Below are positions 24,805 through 36,166 of a stretch of 64,000 nucleotides of DNA, in pieces. Location of the stretch: the IMG/VR virus record IMGVR_UViG_3300009784_000001, positions 118,418-182,417 of that record, one strand, 5' to 3'. This DNA is from a virus (taxonomy: Duplodnaviria; Heunggongvirae; Uroviricota; Caudoviricetes). A model generated the notes under the pieces. The model did no database searches and had not been told where the DNA came from. It was given only the letters and a program-made list of their open reading frames with translations. The first letter of the stretch is position 1. Each line of letters starts with the position of its first letter. Made by a program: the position numbers and the translations under genes.

Positions 24805-26865
24805 ATGGCAGATAAAGAAATAAAATCAAATAGATTACAAACTATATATCAAGCTCTTAATAGAACATTAAATGGATGGAATACTGGTAGTTTTACAACA
24901 AATGTAAAAACAGCAAACAATTCCAATACTTATAATTATGGTCAAGATATATTATTAAAAACTACTGATAAAACAGAATATGATAAAACAAAACTCCAAG
25001 CAAAACAAGATAAATATTTAGCTAATAAATGGTACACAGGTAATATACAAACAAATATCAGTACATTGAATAATATGAATCTTGTTGATTTACTATACAG
25101 GGATGTAGAATTAATGTCATCAAGACCTGAAATCAGTGCTGCTCTAGATATCTTTATGGAAGAAAGTGTAAATATCGGTGCTGATGGTAATTTAATTAAC
25201 ATATATTCCAAATCACCTCGTATTAAACAAATACTGGAAGATTTATTCATTAACAGATTACAAATTCATATTACTTTGCCTACTATCTGTAGAACAATGT
25301 GTAAATATGGAAATGCTTTTCAACATTTAAATATAAACAGTAAAAATGGAGTTATTGCTTGGAGAGAATTACCAACAGTAGAAATAAAAAGATTTGAAAA
25401 TCAATATCCTTATGGTTTTGTTGCACAAAATATGGGTGATAAAAATAATGATGATTTAGCACCTCATTTTGAATGGATGGGTGCAGGAACTCAAATGCCA
25501 TTTCGCCAGTGGGAAATATCTCACTTTAGATTGCTAAATGATTCGTTCTACAAACCTTATGGATGCTCAGTATTAAATGGAGCTAGGCGCCATTGGAGGC
25601 TTTTAAGTTTAATGGAAGATGCTATGTTAATTTATAGAATAGAAAAAGCATTTGAAAGAAGAGTATTTAAAATAGATGTAGGTGGAATTGATCCATCAGA
25701 TGTCCAAGCATTTGTACAAGAAATTGCTAATAACTTTAAAAGAAGTATTGTAGTTGATCCTTTAACAGGACAACTTGATTTAAGACAGAACATAATGTCA
25801 GTGAATCAAGATTTCTTTATTCCTGTAAGAGGTACTAATCAAGGAACTACAATAGAATCACTTCCAGCGGGTACTAATTTAGACAAAATTGAAGATTTAG
25901 AATATATCCATAATCAAATGTTATCTGCTTTAAGAATTCCTAAACCATTTTTGGGATTTGAAGAAGCTAAAGGAAATGGAAAAAATTTAAGTACACTAGA
26001 TATTCGTTTTTCAAGAGTTGTTAATCGTATTCAACAAGCATTAATAATGGAAATGAATAAAGTTGCAATTATTCATTTATATTTATTAGGATTTGATGAT
26101 GATTTGAATAATTTCACTATTACAATGAATAATCCTTCTACACAAGCTGAAATATTAAGGATTGAAGAAATGCAAAAGAAAATCTTATTATTGAAAGATG
26201 CTTTGGGTGATAGTGGAAATGGATTGCCAATTATGTCTTATAGATATGCTTTAAAAACTATAATGAAATTTTCTGATGAAGAAATTAGTGATATGTTAAA
26301 TGATATAAGATTAGAAAAAGCCTTAAGTGCTGAATTAGCATTTACTTCTCAAATTATACAAAGAACTGGCATATTTGATAAAATAGATAAATTATATGGT
26401 GCACCAAATGCACAGTATAAAGGAATTGAAAATAGCGGAACAGATGGAGTTGAAGGCACTAACATTGGTGGTGGTGGAGGCGGTGGTATGATGATGGGAA
26501 GTGATATGGGTGATGAAGGTGGCGGATTAGGAGAAAGTGATTTTGGAACTGCTCCAGAAATTGGAGGAGAAACAATGCAAGGACAAACTGAAACTGCACC
26601 AGTAGGAGAAGCTAAAGTAAATTTGGATAAAGTAAATAAATTACTTGTTGAAAGAATAGAAACAATGAAAAAAGATATACAAAATAGTATATCTACAAAA
26701 TTGCATACATACACAGATTTATATATTAAAAAATTAAAAGAAAATAAAGAAGAAAAAATTGAAAATAAAATGACACAAAATGTGGAAATTTTTGACAAGA
26801 ATTTCTTGATGAATGAAGAATATAATAAATTGGAGAAAGGGTTAGACAAATATCTTAAAGATTAA
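24805..26865 (+). CDS. gp20: Portal protein, T4 gp20-like
   Basis: PEISAALDIFMEE, LMEDAMLIYRI...RRVFKIDVG, QDFFIP.RG..GTTIESLPAG.NL..IEDLEY, LRIPK. Confidence 0.93.
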   Translation: MADKEIKSNRLQTIYQALNRTLNGWNTGSFTTNVKTANNSNTYNYGQDILLKTTDKTEYDKTKLQAKQDKYLANKWYTGNIQTNISTLNNMNLVDLLYRDVELMSSRPEISAALDIFMEESVNIGADGNLINIYSKSPRIKQILEDLFINRLQIHITLPTICRTMCKYGNAFQHLNINSKNGVIAWRELPTVEIKRFENQYPYGFVAQNMGDKNNDDLAPHFEWMGAGTQMPFRQWEISHFRLLNDSFYKPYGCSVLNGARRHWRLLSLMEDAMLIYRIEKAFERRVFKIDVGGIDPSDVQAFVQEIANNFKRSIVVDPLTGQLDLRQNIMSVNQDFFIPVRGTNQGTTIESLPAGTNLDKIEDLEYIHNQMLSALRIPKPFLGFEEAKGNGKNLSTLDIRFSRVVNRIQQALIMEMNKVAIIHLYLLGFDDDLNNFTITMNNPSTQAEILRIEEMQKKILLLKDALGDSGNGLPIMSYRYALKTIMKFSDEEISDMLNDIRLEKALSAELAFTSQIIQRTGIFDKIDKLYGAPNAQYKGIENSGTDGVEGTNIGGGGGGGMMMGSDMGDEGGGLGESDFGTAPEIGGETMQGQTETAPVGEAKVNLDKVNKLLVERIETMKKDIQNSISTKLHTYTDLYIKKLKENKEEKIENKMTQNVEIFDKNFLMNEEYNKLEKGLDKYLKD

Positions 26866-26890
26866 ATATTTATATAAAATAATAAATTAC

Positions 26891-27835
26891 ATGAAAAGTT
26901 TTAATGAATTAAACAACATATTTGAAAATCATATTTCTCAACTTTATAGTACAGAAGAAGGAAGAAAAGTAATTACTAAATATTTAAAACTTATTAAAGA
27001 AAATGAAATATTAAAAGAACAATATAAACTATTCAATCAGTTAAAGGAGGGAGTTAGTGAAAATTTCAAAGCAAAAACAAATCTTGTTGAAGAATATGTT
27101 TCTTATATTCCTACTTTATTTGAAAAGTATACAAAAAAACAAATTGCAGAATCAAATGAAAAATTATATCAATTTTTGAAAGAGTATACCCCAGATTTCC
27201 ATGCTAATTATAGAGCAGATAGAGATAAGATAATGGGATTTCAAGGTCCTGTGAAAGATACAACTCCAGTAGGAAAATTAGATTATTTTGATTGGGCTGA
27301 TGAAATGGGGTATGACATTGCCAATAATGATTATCATAAATTATATAATGAATATTTAAATGAATCTAAAATATTAAAAGCTGCTGAATATCTTATTTAT
27401 GAAGGAAAAACTAATCTTGAAGAATATATTAATCAAAAAAATGTATTAATTGAAGAATTAAAAACAAAAAACAAAAATGTTCAAGAAGAAAAAAGAACAT
27501 TAGATGAAATGTTATCTGACTTTAATGAAAAATATGAAGGAAAATTAACAAATGAAGAAATATCAATTATTAAAGAATTAATATTATCTACTGACAAAAA
27601 TAAAAAGAAAGAAGCATTAAAAGAATATCAAAAAGATTGTTTGAAAGATTTGAATGTTGTATTACAAGAATGTTCTGATACAGATATTAAAGAACGATTA
27701 TTGTCTTTGAAAGAACAGGTTTTATTTGATAGAGATAATAGTCTAAATGAAAATATTATTAAATTAAATGAAATAAAAAATGTCTTGAAAGAGTTCAAAC
27801 TTGATAAAGATGAGGAAGATATGTCCAATGAATGA
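26891..27835 (+). CDS. Hypothetical helical protein, likely head morphogenesis
   Basis: 314 aa directly after the portal gene, with its own TATTTAT motif. Confidence 0.6.
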   Translation: MKSFNELNNIFENHISQLYSTEEGRKVITKYLKLIKENEILKEQYKLFNQLKEGVSENFKAKTNLVEEYVSYIPTLFEKYTKKQIAESNEKLYQFLKEYTPDFHANYRADRDKIMGFQGPVKDTTPVGKLDYFDWADEMGYDIANNDYHKLYNEYLNESKILKAAEYLIYEGKTNLEEYINQKNVLIEELKTKNKNVQEEKRTLDEMLSDFNEKYEGKLTNEEISIIKELILSTDKNKKKEALKEYQKDCLKDLNVVLQECSDTDIKERLLSLKEQVLFDRDNSLNENIIKLNEIKNVLKEFKLDKDEEDMSNE

Positions 27836-28461: not shown

Positions 28462-28884
28462 ATGATAAAAAGACCTTGCAAGGAAGTTAAAATAAAAACA
28501 AATCCTAATTTTGATATAAAATATGGGACATTTAATAAAGATAATCCCAAATCAATCTATATTTTGGGTAAATCATGGATAACACCAATCAATGAAAATT
28601 TCCTGGAAAGTATAGAAAATATTACCAGACAATCAAAATCATTTGTCCGAAATAATAGCAATTTTTCGGACAAAAGTATAGTCAATATTAATATTGCAAA
28701 AGATAGAATGTTATTAAATAAAAAAACATTACTTTCATTTGAAATTCATTTACTTCAAAATGAAACAAAAAATTTAAGTGATATAATCCTCATTAATGAT
28801 ATTAATAATGTGATAAAAAACTTCACAAATAAAATTGAAGAAAATTGTGAAGGATATTTAGAATTATTAAAGAAAAAAAAATAA
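28462..28884 (+). CDS. Hypothetical protein
   Basis: 140-aa ORF with KYGTFNKDNPKSIYI motif. Confidence 0.6.
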   Translation: MIKRPCKEVKIKTNPNFDIKYGTFNKDNPKSIYILGKSWITPINENFLESIENITRQSKSFVRNNSNFSDKSIVNINIAKDRMLLNKKTLLSFEIHLLQNETKNLSDIILINDINNVIKNFTNKIEENCEGYLELLKKKK

Positions 28885-28913
28885 AACATATATTTATATA
28901 TAAAAATATTAAT

Positions 28914-31447
28914 ATGGCACAAATTAACGTACCAACAAATTTAAAAGTAACTGGTCCCTCTACAATACAAGCAAATATTAATACAACGAGCCTTCTCAAA
29001 GGTGAAATGGTTTTCGGAAAAATAGGGGGGGGGGGGGTAATGTAAGATTATTCGTTAACTGGGATGGAACAGCAGTTAGTGAGCTACCTTTAGCCTATAG
29101 TTCAGATCCAAATGCTTTTGTTCCATGGGGTCCTGGCTCAACACCAGCAGGAAGTGGTTATGGCATTGGTTCAGGAGCTTGTGTACAAACTTCAAATTCA
29201 ACTGCTATTGGTTATGGAGCATCTACTACAGGTAGTAATTCAATTGCCATTGGTAATCAAGTTCAAGTTCAAAGTAATGGCATTGCTATTGGTATTAATT
29301 CATTATCTAATGAAGGTATTTCTATTGGTACTTCTAGTAATTCTAATGGAACAACATCTGGTATAGCTATTGCAATAGGACGAAGGGCAATATCAACTAA
29401 TAGTTCCTCAATAGCAATTGGAGAAAATGCACAAACAAATAGTACTGGGTCAATAGTAATTGGAGAAAATGCAACTTCAAATAATCTTGAAACAATAGCA
29501 ATAGGATTTCATCCAAATGCTAGTGGTGTAACATCAATAGCAATGGGATATTATACAACTTCAAATGGTCCTTATTCAACAGCAATAGGTTTTCAAGCAA
29601 ATGCACTTGCTTTGAATTCAATAACAATAGGAAATCAAGCAAATGTAGCAACTGTTATTTCAAATGGTTCGATAGCAATAGGTGCAAGTGCAAAATGTCT
29701 AGATTCAGATGCAGTGGCTATTGGTCAAACAAGTTCTGCTAATAGAGTAAGTGTAGCAATAGGAAGTAATGCTAAAGCAAATTGGCGTTCAGTAAGTATT
29801 GGATATAATGCTCAAACTGGTAATGATAGTGTTGTAATAGGAGATGAAATAGGAGATGGATTTGGCGGCCCTGCTGCTTCAAATAATATCATAGGAATAG
29901 GGCGAGCTGCCATACAAGGTGAAAATTCAATTGTTATATCTCCAACTTCTGCTTCTTCAAATTTTCCAAATTCAATAGCAATAGGTCATTATCTCACATC
30001 AAATGCAAATTTTGGATTAACATTAGGTTATGGTTGTCAAGTATTAGGAGATAATTCAATAGCAATAGGCGTAAATCCAGTAGTAAATGTTAACACATCT
30101 AATTCTATTGCAATTGGACATTGTGCGTCTGTTAGTGCTAACAATATAGCAGGTGTAGTTGGTGGTGAAATAGCAATAGGCGCTGGAGCTAATGCCATAT
30201 TAAATTCTTGTATAGCAATAGGAAATGGGGCAACAGCACAATTACAATATAGTACAATGATGCCTGCAATAGCAATAGGAAGTAATTCAAGTGCAACAAA
30301 TTCAGGAGGAATAGCTATTGGAAGTAATGCAACGACTTCTTATGGAATAGCTATTGGAAGTAATGCAACGACTTCTCTATCTCATGGTATAGCAATAGGA
30401 CATAATGTATTATTATATGGCGTAGCAAGTGATGATACATCAATAATAATGGGGTATACTTCATCTATAAATAATTCTATTGGAGCTAAAATAATAGGAT
30501 CATATTCAAGTGCTATAAATTCAACTTCATCAATTATTATAGGAGAACATACAAATTTAGCATCTAATGTCCAAAGTGGAATATTTTTAGGAGATTTAAT
30601 AGTAACCAATGTCAATACTATTGGTTCAATTGGAATAGGTGATAGTTGTATTACAGGAGCAACTGGCTCAATAGCGATTGGAATTCAAGCAAATTCTAAT
30701 GGGATAAATTCATTAGCAATAGGTTCTCAAGCAAATGCAATTGGAAGTAATGTTATTACAATAGGAAGTAATGCAACTTCAAATGCAGCAGGTGGAAATA
30801 CGATCTCAGTAGGCACAAATTCTTTGGGTTCTAGTGTATATGCAGTTGCTTTAGGATGTAATTCTGTTGCCAGTTCAGGTTGTGGAGCAACAGCAATAGG
30901 TGCTTATGCTTATGCAAATGGAGCGTCAATAGCAATTGGACATAGAGCAACTGCAAGTAATGGAATAGGTATTGGTTCTATAGTAATTGGACAAAGTACA
31001 ACTTCAACCACTGCTAATAGTATACAATTAGGAAGTTCAGCTTACACAAGTATATATTGGGGATCAGGCACATCAGCTTCTTTTAATACAACTTCAGATG
31101 AACGTATTAAAGAAAATATAGTTGAGGCAAATACAACAATATGCTTATCAGATGTTAATAGATTGAAAGTTAAACGTTTTAATTACAAAGATTTTGTTGG
31201 TAGCAATACAGATAAGACAGTAACTGGATTTATAGCACAGGATTTTAGAGAAGTATTCCCAAAGCAAGTAAATGAAATAAACAAAGTTTACAGTCAAGAA
31301 GGCAAAGAGGATATAGTATTTGAAGATTTGTTAAGCATTGATACATCGCAGGTTATTTATACATTGGTAGGAGCTATTCAGGAACTGACAAAACAAAATC
31401 AAGATTTAACAAAAAGGATAGAGATATTAGAAAATAAAATTCTTTAA
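28914..31447 (+). CDS. Tail fibre/adhesin with YadA-head-like (A-I-G) repeats and C-terminal S74-type intramolecular chaperone; frameshifted at a G13 tract in this sequence
   Basis: ATG 28914 (late motif at 28891) reads MAQINVPT...GKIGGGGVM* with G13; the frame starting GGT at 29036 has no stop through 29543 to 31447; C-terminal TTSDERIKENI...LKVKRFNYK...GFIAQ. Confidence 0.85.
29025..29037 (+). repeat. G13 homopolymer (candidate contingency locus)
   Basis: aata-GGGGGGGGGGGGG-taatg; the only long G run I found in this AT-rich window. Confidence 0.95.
30308..30376 (+). repeat. Exact 33-bp direct repeat with 36-bp period inside the fibre gene
   Basis: ggaatagctattggaagtaatgcaacgacttct at 30308-30340 and 30344-30376. 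Confidence 0.9.
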
Positions 31448-31476
31448 AAAAGGTTGGTATATTTATTAAAGATGAG

Positions 31477-31512
31477 AAAAAGGTAGAATTGTTTATTCAG
31501 TTCTACCTTTTT
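31477..31512 (+). terminator. Intrinsic terminator after the fibre gene
   Basis: aaaaaggtagaa...ttctaccttttt. Confidence 0.75.
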
Positions 31513-31561
31513 CAATTTTTTTATTAGTTATCATATATTTATATAAAAATTAAGTTTTTTT

Positions 31562-32281
31562 ATGATACTTAAAGAGATAAAAAAAAATCAATTAGGTACT
31601 GGTTTACTTATCGAAAATGATGGTTTTATTAGTATTAATGATCCTAACAACAAAATATTAAAAGAAGAATTAGATAAAGGAACTAATGATGGTAATTGGT
31701 ATATTCCTTATCCTTTTATTGTTCATGCTTTATTTCAAAGAGCTAATAAAGAAAATGCAAATGGTAGAATATATCCAAGAGATGTTCTTGAAAGGCAAAT
31801 TGAATTATATCAACAAAAAATACAGGAAAGAAGAGCATATGCGGAATCGAACCATCCTTCCGATATTGTATTAGACATCAATAACTTATCTACAAATGTT
31901 ATAGAATTACATTGGGAAGGAGATAATGTTCTTGGGCAAATGGAAATATTATTATCGCCTGGATATGTAAAACATGGGATAGTATCTACCAGTGGGGATA
32001 GATTAGCAAATCTTCTATATTTCAATAAAGTTAAATTAGGAGTTAGTTCAAGAGGAGTTGGTTCAGTTGAACAAAAATTTGGAAAAATATTAGTTCAAGA
32101 TGATTTTGAATTAATATGTTTTGATGCAGTTACTGATCCTTCTACTCATAATGCTTGGTTTGACTTGAAAAAAGAGGGGTTGTCGCCTTATTTAGAATCT
32201 AAAGAAAAAATAAATAAAAATAAAATTTATATAATAGAAAAATTAGATAAAATTATAAACAAAAATAAATTAATATTATGA
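31562..32281 (+). CDS. gp21: Prohead core protease, T4 gp21-like
   Basis: FQRANKENANGRIYP, YAESNHP (His), LGVSSRGVGS (Ser), FDAVTDPST. Confidence 0.93.
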   Translation: MILKEIKKNQLGTGLLIENDGFISINDPNNKILKEELDKGTNDGNWYIPYPFIVHALFQRANKENANGRIYPRDVLERQIELYQQKIQERRAYAESNHPSDIVLDINNLSTNVIELHWEGDNVLGQMEILLSPGYVKHGIVSTSGDRLANLLYFNKVKLGVSSRGVGSVEQKFGKILVQDDFELICFDAVTDPSTHNAWFDLKKEGLSPYLESKEKINKNKIYIIEKLDKIINKNKLIL

Positions 32282-34231: not shown

Positions 34232-36166
34232 ATGAGAGAATTTTTAGGATCTGCTCAAGTAGGAAATATAGAATTGAACGAGCAGAAAAAAGTTAAAAAA
34301 ATGATTCTGGAACGTTGGGATGGATTAGGTTTCACCGAAGGTTTACATGGACATTTGAAAGAAACTATCGCAACATTATACGAAAATCAAGCTAAATATT
34401 TGATGATGAATGAAGCAACAGACTCCGCTAATAGTGGTTCTTTTGAAACTGTTGTATTTCCAATCATCCGTAGGGTATTCAGTAGATTGTTAGCAAACGA
34501 TATTGTTTCTGTACAAGCTATGAATTTACCTATTGGTAAATTGTTCTTTATAATTCCTGTAACATCAGAAAGACAATGGAATGGTTTGGACGCACAAGGT
34601 AACACACAAGATGGTTCATCTGGTGGTCATGTTGGTTTAATGGGTTATGAAAGAGCCGATAGAAATTGGGAAAATACTGGAAAAGGTTCACAAGGTGTCT
34701 ATAACAATAGATATTATTTACCTGATGAAGTTATTACTTCAAATGTAACTGAAAGACCTGTTCCTACTTTTGATACTGTTGATCCTGTAACTGGAATGCC
34801 TACTTCTACATCTGTTAGAAATATTCCAGTAGTATCACAATATTTCAAAACTTCTTTATATGATTTATTCTATAATGATTTTCTGTTTGATAATTCAAAA
34901 GGAAAAATCTGGATTAAAGTTGCTGCAACTGCTACTCCTGTTATCTTAAATGATAGAAGAGAATGGGTAAATGTAAGTGGTGCTACTTATCCTGCAAGTA
35001 GAATGGATAATACTACAAGAAACGTGATTCTTGAAGTAACTGGCTTTAATAATTTCAATGCTGGTAGATTAACTGGTCCTGACGGAAACGAAATGGATAC
35101 AGAAGCATTTATTGCTTCTTTAAAAGTATTAACTGTAAATCCTATCGAAGATTCTGCTGACAAAGGTTTTACAACTTTTGCTCAATATGAATCAATTCCT
35201 TTCAGAATTATGACACAAAAATATGGTAAAGGAATCGTTGAATATAACGATATTTGTGATGCAAACGGTAAATTATATATCGAATTAGATATGACTAAAC
35301 CAACTGTTGATCAAGGTTTAACTATTGATGGATACATTGGTGTAGATAATACTATCAACTTTGACGTAGATTCTTTTGTAGTATCTTGGGCACAATATGA
35401 TAGCTTAGAATTGGAAACTGAAATTGGTGAAGTTTCTTTCAAATTAGATTCAGTTGTTGTTTCTGTTGAAGAAAGAAAATTAAGAGCTACTTGGTCTCCT
35501 GAATTAGCACAAGACGTTGCTGCTTTCCATAATATTGATGCTGAAGCTGAATTAACAGCTATCTTATCAGAACAAATCGCTGCTGAAATTGACAGGGAAA
35601 TCTTAAGAGATTTAAGAAAAGTTGCTCCTTGGCAAGCACGTTGGGATGTTAATGGTTGGAGAAGAATGGCTGCTTTCTCTACTAACTATACACAAAAAGA
35701 CTGGAATCAAGAATTTATTACTAAAATAAATCAGATTTCTGCTCAAATCCACAAATCTACTTTAAGAGGTGGTGCAAACTTTGTTGTAGTTTCTTCTGAA
35801 ATTAGTGCTTTATTAGATAACTTGGAATATTTCCACGTAACGGATGCTTCTGCTGAAAGTGATCAATACAACATGGGTATTGAAAAAATTGGTACTTTGC
35901 AAGGTAGATACCAAGTATATAGAGATCCTTATTCTCCTCACTGGTCAGCTATTATCGGTCATAAAGGAAAATCATTGTTAGATACTGGTTATATTTATGC
36001 ACCTTATGTGCCTCTGCAATTGACACCAACAATGTATAATCCGTTCAATTTCGCCCCAGTGAAAGGTATTATGACAAGATATGCCAAAAAAGTTTGCAAC
36101 AATAGGTATTATGGTCACGTTCGGGTGGACGGGCTTGTAACTTGGAACACAAATGAGTTTAGATAA
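34232..36166 (+). CDS. gp23: Major capsid protein, T4 gp23-like
   Basis: LLANDIVSVQAM, RKLRATWSPELAQDVAAFHNIDAEAELTAILSEQIAAEIDREI, GYIYAPYVPL, MTRYA. Confidence 0.97.
   Translation: MREFLGSAQVGNIELNEQKKVKKMILERWDGLGFTEGLHGHLKETIATLYENQAKYLMMNEATDSANSGSFETVVFPIIRRVFSRLLANDIVSVQAMNLPIGKLFFIIPVTSERQWNGLDAQGNTQDGSSGGHVGLMGYERADRNWENTGKGSQGVYNNRYYLPDEVITSNVTERPVPTFDTVDPVTGMPTSTSVRNIPVVSQYFKTSLYDLFYNDFLFDNSKGKIWIKVAATATPVILNDRREWVNVSGATYPASRMDNTTRNVILEVTGFNNFNAGRLTGPDGNEMDTEAFIASLKVLTVNPIEDSADKGFTTFAQYESIPFRIMTQKYGKGIVEYNDICDANGKLYIELDMTKPTVDQGLTIDGYIGVDNTINFDVDSFVVSWAQYDSLELETEIGEVSFKLDSVVVSVEERKLRATWSPELAQDVAAFHNIDAEAELTAILSEQIAAEIDREILRDLRKVAPWQARWDVNGWRRMAAFSTNYTQKDWNQEFITKINQISAQIHKSTLRGGANFVVVSSEISALLDNLEYFHVTDASAESDQYNMGIEKIGTLQGRYQVYRDPYSPHWSAIIGHKGKSLLDTGYIYAPYVPLQLTPTMYNPFNFAPVKGIMTRYAKKVCNNRYYGHVRVDGLVTWNTNEFR

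Follow-up and report, generated by a model that had tools for sequence, protein, structure and literature searches.

Among the systems described to date, the closest to the locus reported here are the Fletchervirus phages of Campylobacter, in which receptor-binding protein genes are reported to contain runs of 7-11 Gs (Sørensen et al. 2021, Cell Rep 35:109214; PMC10579305, PMC10877375), and these tracts reportedly create subpopulations able to infect in the absence of the phase-variable receptor (Sørensen et al. 2021; bioRxiv 10.1101/2025.10.21.683753). Contingency loci with reversible frameshifts at simple repeats have also been reported in phages T2 and T4 (Gomez, Barrick & Waters, bioRxiv 10.1101/2025.10.21.683753); the same work also names polyG tracts in a methylase gene of BPP-1 and a baseplate gene of PB1-like phages, and finds short repeats under-represented in the tail-fibre genes of BASEL coliphages.

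The window that we analysed, a stretch of 64,000 nucleotides, comprises bases 118418-182417 of an IMG/VR virus record of 359,943 bp that carries direct terminal repeats and has a G+C content of 26%. Shortly after the start codon of a fibre gene in this window lies an uninterrupted run of 13 Gs, which we consider probably to be a slipped-strand contingency locus, shown here in the OFF state. The features of the gene are the following.

28890..28898, plus strand: ATATTTATA, candidate late-promoter motif, 16 nt upstream of the start codon
28914..29024, plus strand: first 37 codons including the start codon, making up the opening half of the shared N-terminal fibre module (MAQINVPTNLKV...GEMVFGKI)
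29025-29037, plus strand: G13 homopolymer, candidate slippage switch, out of frame here
29038..29045, plus strand: where OFF-state translation ends, reading (G)TA ATG TAA (stop at 29043-29045)
29027..31447, plus strand: downstream frame, fibre body, 806 codons plus stop, reached only with G11 or G14
29150..31090 (approximate bounds), plus strand: Ser/Gly/Ile/Ala-rich AIG repeat region of YadA-head type (Pfam YadA_head)
31094..31270, plus strand: Peptidase_S74 intramolecular chaperone domain (Pfam PF13884), starting at SDERIK
31331..31435, plus strand: MYRF_ICA-like C-terminal helix of the chaperone (Pfam PF13887)

The locus resembles the Fletchervirus case in that polyG lies in genes for predicted virion fibres or for receptor-binding proteins of a low-GC, T4-like myovirus with several tracts per genome, and in that tract length would decide protein production and should give mixed progeny. 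The likeness is one of analogy only, since megablast and N-terminal tblastn revealed no sequence homology in the phage collection. The present phage differs further in being uncultured and 360 kb in size, in having runs of up to 13 as opposed to 7-11, in having the switch at either of two sites in a shared docking module (polyG at the hairpin turn or polyC 16 codons in), and in an apparent exchange of cassettes. With T2 and T4 it would share reversible simple-repeat frameshifts in phage genes, proposed as bet-hedging, but their repeats are short (at least 6 nt) and of ordinary frequency, whereas those described here are long, rare for the composition of the genome and concentrated in fibre genes.

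The arrangement is also reminiscent of bacterial phase variation in the surface and modification genes of Campylobacter, Haemophilus, Neisseria and Helicobacter, with a 5'-proximal G or C run inside the reading frame at several independent loci of one genome and putative slipped-strand mispairing as the ON/OFF control; here, however, the carrier is a virus, and switching would take place in phage DNA replication with the virion population as the unit of selection. The invertible G/C segments of Mu and P1 and the diversity-generating retroelement of Bordetella phage BPP-1 also diversify the receptor-binding end of the virion within a lineage, but they use a site-specific invertase or a reverse transcriptase, while the present tract would need neither enzyme and implies neither inverted repeats nor a template repeat.

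The G13 tract starts 111 nt from the ATG at 28914. The frame of this ATG reads MAQINVPTNLKV...GEMVFGKIGGGGVM and ends after 43 codons at the TAA at 29043-29045; the other wrong frame meets a TAA directly after the tract, and both wrong frames therefore terminate no more than two codons past it. The displaced frame is open from 29006 to 31447, and given that its first in-frame ATG, GTG or TTG is at 29543, the 806-codon frame is accessible from ATG 28914 only with 11 or 14 Gs. With G14 the product has 844 aa and with G11 it has 843 aa, while G12 gives four GGG codons and then TAA at once. There are no internal stops in the 806-codon frame (chance ~2.5e-28), whereas the two alternative frames have 92 and 75, and the fibre gene has no lesion other than the tract, so that a 1-nt change of length toggles between the full-length ORF and early termination. 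The first-pass annotation had proposed a homopolymer switch at the gene start with a 43-aa OFF peptide, an immediate stop with G12 and joining to the open frame with G11 or G14, and our reading of the frames bears out the peptide and the frame relations. The protein database entries for this gene consist only of pieces of 634 aa and 43 aa.

The same annotation had placed a late motif ahead of ATG 28914, and ATATTTATA is indeed present at 28890-28898. The motif is found 10-30 nt upstream of the portal, prohead protease and major capsid protein (MCP) genes, of all the sister fibre genes and of the fifth polyG gene described below, and it occurs 20 times in the window as against 10.9 copies expected, a count reached in 0 of 100 shuffles. 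From this distribution we infer that ATATTTATA may act as a late promoter. Shine-Dalgarno sequences are lacking upstream of the genes inspected for the late motif, and the nearest cultured MCPs belong to Flavobacterium, Microcystis and Rhodothermus phages (35-41%); taken together, the missing Shine-Dalgarno sequences and the distant MCP relatives give faint hints of a Bacteroidota host.

The downstream frame encodes a recognizable fibre. YadA_head matches in four stretches (E 1e-21, 77 bits against a Pfam cut-off of 25), and Peptidase_S74 (PF13884) matches at residues 690-748 (E 5e-13, 49.6 bits against a cut-off of 22), with SDERIK at downstream residue 690; the A-I-G repeats and S74-type chaperone noticed earlier from the letters are thus both present, the former as 24 AIG motifs. 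We take SDERIK to be the Ser/Lys arrangement expected at the S74 self-cleavage site, as in the endosialidase chaperone, and on this basis the fibre is predicted to cleave itself. The C-terminal match to PF13887 (E 1.8e-4, 21.1 bits) is slightly under the cut-off of 24.1, and the frame also matches PHROG tail-fibre families. The product is therefore like S74 fibres of the K1F endosialidase type in its above-threshold S74 match and its Ser/Lys motif, and like the YadA trimeric autotransporter adhesins in its above-threshold head repeats, but unlike the YadA family it has no membrane anchor: the Pfam YadA_anchor domain is absent from the product and S74 stands in its place, and we therefore rejected identity as a trimeric autotransporter.

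The combination of YadA_head and S74 is common to hundreds of metagenomic and phage proteins, but none is close to the body of this fibre. Identity to the body peaks at 32% among proteins from outside the genome, the best match of all being a paralogue at 44%. Protein searches returned neither an in-frame version of the gene nor an orthologue of its body elsewhere, the locus had no megablast match among deposited phages, and the fibre body, the N-terminal alignment and a gapped DNA pattern had no matches among viral contigs, where the exact pattern GGAAAAATA followed by G9 was found in unrelated contigs only. The gene sits in the head module, with the T4-type portal gene upstream (24805-26865) and the prohead protease (31562-32281) and MCP (34232-36166) genes downstream. 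Related phages have the homologue of ORF 28462-28884 immediately next to the protease gene, indicating that the head module gained this 2.5-kb fibre gene by a lineage-specific insertion.

Contingency loci are recognized by an uninterrupted mononucleotide run of ~8 nt or more in the 5' part of a coding sequence, and G13 is such a run. We counted runs over the whole genome. G-runs fall off smoothly in number over lengths 1-6 (with 8 runs of six), there are none of 7-8, and then come five single G or C runs of at least 9, with lengths 9, 10, 10, 11 and 13, where extrapolation predicts 0.06 for G and 0.006 for C; A and T runs decay smoothly, without such a gap. The occurrence of the tracts is above chance. 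All five long runs lie 47-116 nt after a start codon, in genes with an upstream ATATTTATA motif, and are located as follows.

Genome position 27757 (T1): C10 on the coding strand, 16 codons after the ATG, out of frame, with 267 codons downstream
Genome position 101520 (T2): G11, in frame, 512-aa YadA_head/S74 fibre, P0001
Genome position 147442 (T3, the gene under study): G13, out of frame, 843/844 aa if G11/G14
Genome position 207771 (T4): G9, out of frame, with 157 codons downstream
Genome position 311991 (fifth run): G10, in frame, unrelated 284-aa late gene

Four of the five runs lie in a paralogous fibre family with a shared N-terminal module of ~55 aa (consensus M(x)IPTNLKV...G(Q/E)(M/I)AFGKI-loop-N(I/V)RLF), in which G9, G11 and G13 share one codon site and C10 occupies a different one. 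The module also occurs without a tract, in two further copies: one in a 263-aa short fibre, whose loop is encoded by GGG GGA GGA, and one at the C-terminal end of a PI-PLC-X-like ORF. The corrections that would restore the frame are -1 for G13 and C10, +1 for G9 and none for G11, and such differences fit random lengths and not a programmed recoding signal.

It was reasonable to ask if the glycines encoded by the tract are needed for the protein. GGG accounts for 8.9% of Gly codons in 241 long ORFs, and among 33 runs of three or more glycines, GGG GGG GGG occurs only in the polyG genes; the other Gly runs to which the earlier reading had pointed, near 2750 and 26467, do use mixed GGT/GGA/GGC codons. 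The N-terminal module of the gene aligns with those of five paralogues and of metagenomic homologues, and between its conserved AFGKI and IRLF.N segments the loop varies from 2 to 10 residues, the tract-less homologues having NGTG, PSTG, PTTG, GTEDE, GGG (as GGG GGA GGA) or IGTATVATG. Given that homologues carry other residues in the loop, the four glycines appear dispensable. The first-pass annotation would have counted a Gly run in mixed codons in relatives, if found, as evidence against a switch. Distant homologues do show mixed codons, but we read this to mean that the run is not required for coding, which favours the switch.

An AF2 model of the first 110 residues of the paralogue P0001, confident over residues 1-50 (block-mean pLDDT 72-90), has strands at 26-31 and 37-42. 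The model places the tract in a β-hairpin turn, and such a turn can, as modelled, take one Gly more or fewer, as ON lengths in steps of three would need. The modelled N-terminal module had no significant Foldseek match in the PDB, and the module had no tblastn match in 50,697 deposited phage records.

Relatives of the module are few. Intact homologues numbered only two among 5.8 billion clustered proteins, a metagenome scan for the module yielded twelve loci, and a protein search for short N-terminal stubs returned only the one of this genome. Three metagenome contigs (LSPZ01...), from another sample, are ~80% nucleotide-identical to this genome. Related contig L119 has a gene that opens MNIPTNLKL...GEMAFGKI, continues as GGGNVRLFVNWDGTAVSELPLAY in the following frame and has an out-of-frame tract of G9, together with a T1-type gene on the minus strand with C10, also out of frame; L120 has a T1-type gene with C12, again out of frame. 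The comparison of tract lengths among relatives that the first-pass annotation had suggested thus shows that they differ, being, with the paralogues included, 9, 11, 13 and 9 at the G site and 10, 10 and 12 at the C site. The tract genes of L119 occupy the loci that in this genome hold T4 and the tract-less short fibre, and their bodies differ, that of the T3-like gene in the related contig being shorter (39% identity over 170 aa). From these arrangements it seems that the module and its switch are exchanged among fibre bodies and loci.

Neither the fibre family nor comparable tracts were present within 10 kb of the MCP gene in 80 related phages, and more distant MCP relatives (50-70% identity, 300-410 kb) are without the fibre family near MCP. 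Long runs as such do recur: 4 of 10 whole related records have G or C runs of at least 9, and in 3 of those at least one run is intragenic. In these related records a G11 splits an N6-adenine methyltransferase gene, a G9 lies in frame in a glycosyltransferase-like ORF, another G9 splits a further ORF, and a G10 and a G9 each split a BspA-type LRR protein gene ~37 codons after the start; relatives in the clade, then, also have polyG-split LRR-protein and DNA methyltransferase genes.

The reading of G13 as a contingency switch is supported by the five 5'-proximal tracts, by the differing lengths at shared sites and by the intact downstream ORF. In this mechanism, the polymerase copying the DNA would gain or lose a G in the run. 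A genome with G11 or G14 would then make an 843/844-aa trimeric fibre with a docking module at its N terminus, adhesin repeats of YadA-head type and an S74 chaperone predicted to cleave itself, while in one with G12 or G13 translation would end within two codons. With three sister fibre genes under the same switch, each progeny genome would have its own combination of optional fibres. We infer replication slippage, incorporation of the fibre into the virion and an effect on adsorption or host range, as well as the switching itself, from the arrangement of the genes and the lengths of their tracts.

A second assembly of the genome, made with MEGAHIT and deposited at ENA as a 359,962-bp contig (ERZ27257292 k141_1583612), matches the record letter for letter over 7.9 kb around G13 and 7.5 kb around G11; a co-occurring fibre homologue points to sequencing run SRR10512953. 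Given that the second assembly also has G13, the OFF state is at least the assembled majority, and the assembler is unlikely simply to have erred; the same reads probably underlie both assemblies, however, so that a bias of the sequencing itself is possible.

Six of the seven family tracts, related contigs included, are out of frame (P ~0.26 for at most one in frame at random), which is compatible with random lengths, with systematic miscounting of long G-runs, or with expression through slippage at the RNA level. The last of these would mean that the DNA tract is stable and that the G13 allele gives rise to full-length fibre by RNA polymerase stuttering or a -1 ribosomal slip, with the tract setting a low, fixed level of expression and not a heritable switch. 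Transcriptional slippage is established as a means of rescuing homopolymer frameshifts for A/T runs, in AT-rich endosymbionts, and 13 identical bases would permit perfect re-pairing of the nascent RNA, or of tRNA-Gly in the -1 frame; moreover, -1 is the exact shift needed by G13, and the majority of the family tracts are out of frame. We nonetheless consider this account unlikely, given that the paralogues need -1, +1 or no correction at the same site, that the 90 nt downstream of the tract form no stable RNA structure, their predicted folding not surpassing that of shuffled sequence (z = -0.46), and that lengths vary among relatives, so that the DNA does change. A programmed ribosomal frameshift is unlikely because the direction of the slip is not conserved and because of the same folding result. 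RNA-level rescue and DNA slippage could act together, and putative stuttering of RNA polymerase may well make the OFF state leaky. Separately, a G-quadruplex role was discarded by reasoning, as a single G13 run lacks the loops that would have to separate four G3 legs.

Long G runs are error-prone on several sequencing platforms, and every OFF tract is one base off an ON length, so it was not unreasonable to consider that short reads miscounted the homopolymers, that the true lengths are G14 here and G8 or G11 and C11 in the sister genes, and that all of the fibres are constitutively ON. We regard such a consensus error as quite improbable: G13 and G11 are letter-identical in two assemblies, two of the five tracts are in frame, so that miscounting is not constant, and out-of-frame lengths are also found in independent contigs of another sample. 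Even an off-by-one count would leave hypermutable runs of 9-13 Gs, encoded in the rare GGG and without a coding need. The gene might instead be a recent insert between a head-module gene and the protease gene that is now being lost, with the frameshift as its first inactivating mutation, and both its lineage-specific insertion and a body without a known close homologue would agree with this. Decay is nevertheless very improbable, given that the sole lesion falls exactly at the homopolymer with 806 codons still open (P ~2.5e-28), that the sister genes show the same single lesion at a like site, and that the promoter motif and start codon are intact.

If the contingency switch is accepted, a broader proposal can be made, tentatively and with less confidence. 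Given that the module appears to be swapped between this phage and its 80% relative, the N-terminal module and its homopolymer switch might together constitute a portable cassette that is recombined onto varied receptor-binding bodies and swapped between conserved loci, providing four independent switches and 16 states, with a SAM-lyase-like counter-defence gene toggled as well. Were this true, phase variation would be a genome-wide strategy of a whole clade of large uncultured phages.

The principle of phase variation by polyG is already published, and the locus represents no new category; what makes it worth the attention of specialists is the multi-locus design and the jumbo phage that carries it. 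The design would be a clean one, with the switch set in an apparently permissive β-hairpin turn of a shared docking module. Metagenomic gene calling splits such genes and hides them. If the tracts do switch, phase-variable virion proteins would reach from Campylobacter phages to a distant clade of uncultured phages of 300-400 kb, and a single genome could hedge among up to 16 fibre combinations; this would bear on the way in which jumbo phages maintain a broad or shifting host range.

The G13 fibre gene is an insertion between a conserved gene for a 140-aa head-module protein and the prohead protease gene, as was apparent when window positions 28462-31562 were compared with the corresponding loci of related phages (L043 and L045); this gene is missing from that position in each of the 80 related loci examined. 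Comparison with metagenome contigs of a relative of about 80% nucleotide identity (L119 against genome positions 207153-214140, and L120 against 25121-27816) revealed conserved loci at which different members of the fibre family are in place, on either strand and with differing bodies, while the flanking genes are still collinear. The common N-terminal module appears to be the site of recombination between fibre genes.

This docking module (MTIPTNLKL...) also occurs, without a tract, at the C-terminal end of a PI-PLC-X-like ORF located elsewhere in the genome, on a stretch (L010) that also carries the fifth polyG tract:

L010:2876-3727, + strand, late gene of 284 aa containing the fifth polyG tract, unrelated to the fibre genes
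Genome 311991-312000 (outside the window), the tract itself, G10, in frame, encoding KGGG (residues 38-41)
L010:8103-9185 (genome about 317100-318185), + strand, PI-PLC-X-like ORF of 361 aa (domain E 2.9e-7)

An amidase-like gene follows the 361-aa ORF, and the order of ORF, docking module and amidase-like gene is kept in the related contig L117. The protein could be a lipase or phosphodiesterase attached to the virion.

For the 284-aa product, ESM Atlas features and structure indicated the S-adenosylmethionine lyase/DUF3293 family (score 0.91, TM 0.57), and the only Pfam match was a weak one to DUF3293 (E 0.0037). On these predictions, the G10 gene may be a candidate for phase-variable counter-restriction.

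G10 tracts were also encountered in unrelated IMG/VR contigs of 31-34% GC (L013, at 2730 and 6562, and L014), inside a repeated 190-nt element (...ttattcggaaaaaata-G10-atctttatattg...); these are chance matches of a sequence-pattern search.

Many structural genes are preceded, 10-30 nt upstream, by ATATTTATA, a candidate late-promoter element present in 20 copies in the window (10.9 expected), at 26866, 28890, 31535, 34194, 36297, 38647 and other positions. The genes that it precedes lack Shine-Dalgarno sequences.

Related 300-360-kb phages (L099 and L102 in record G002, L103 in G008, L104 and L106 in G009) likewise have runs of 9-11 G or C towards the 5' end of other genes. G11 splits an N6-adenine DNA methyltransferase (DEFYTQ...TNPPF); two BspA-type LRR proteins are interrupted some 37 codons in, one by G10 and the other by G9. 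A further G9 splits an ORF without an assigned product, and another G9 lies in frame inside a DUF4422-like glycosyltransferase. PolyG tracts near the 5' end are recurrent in this clade of phages.
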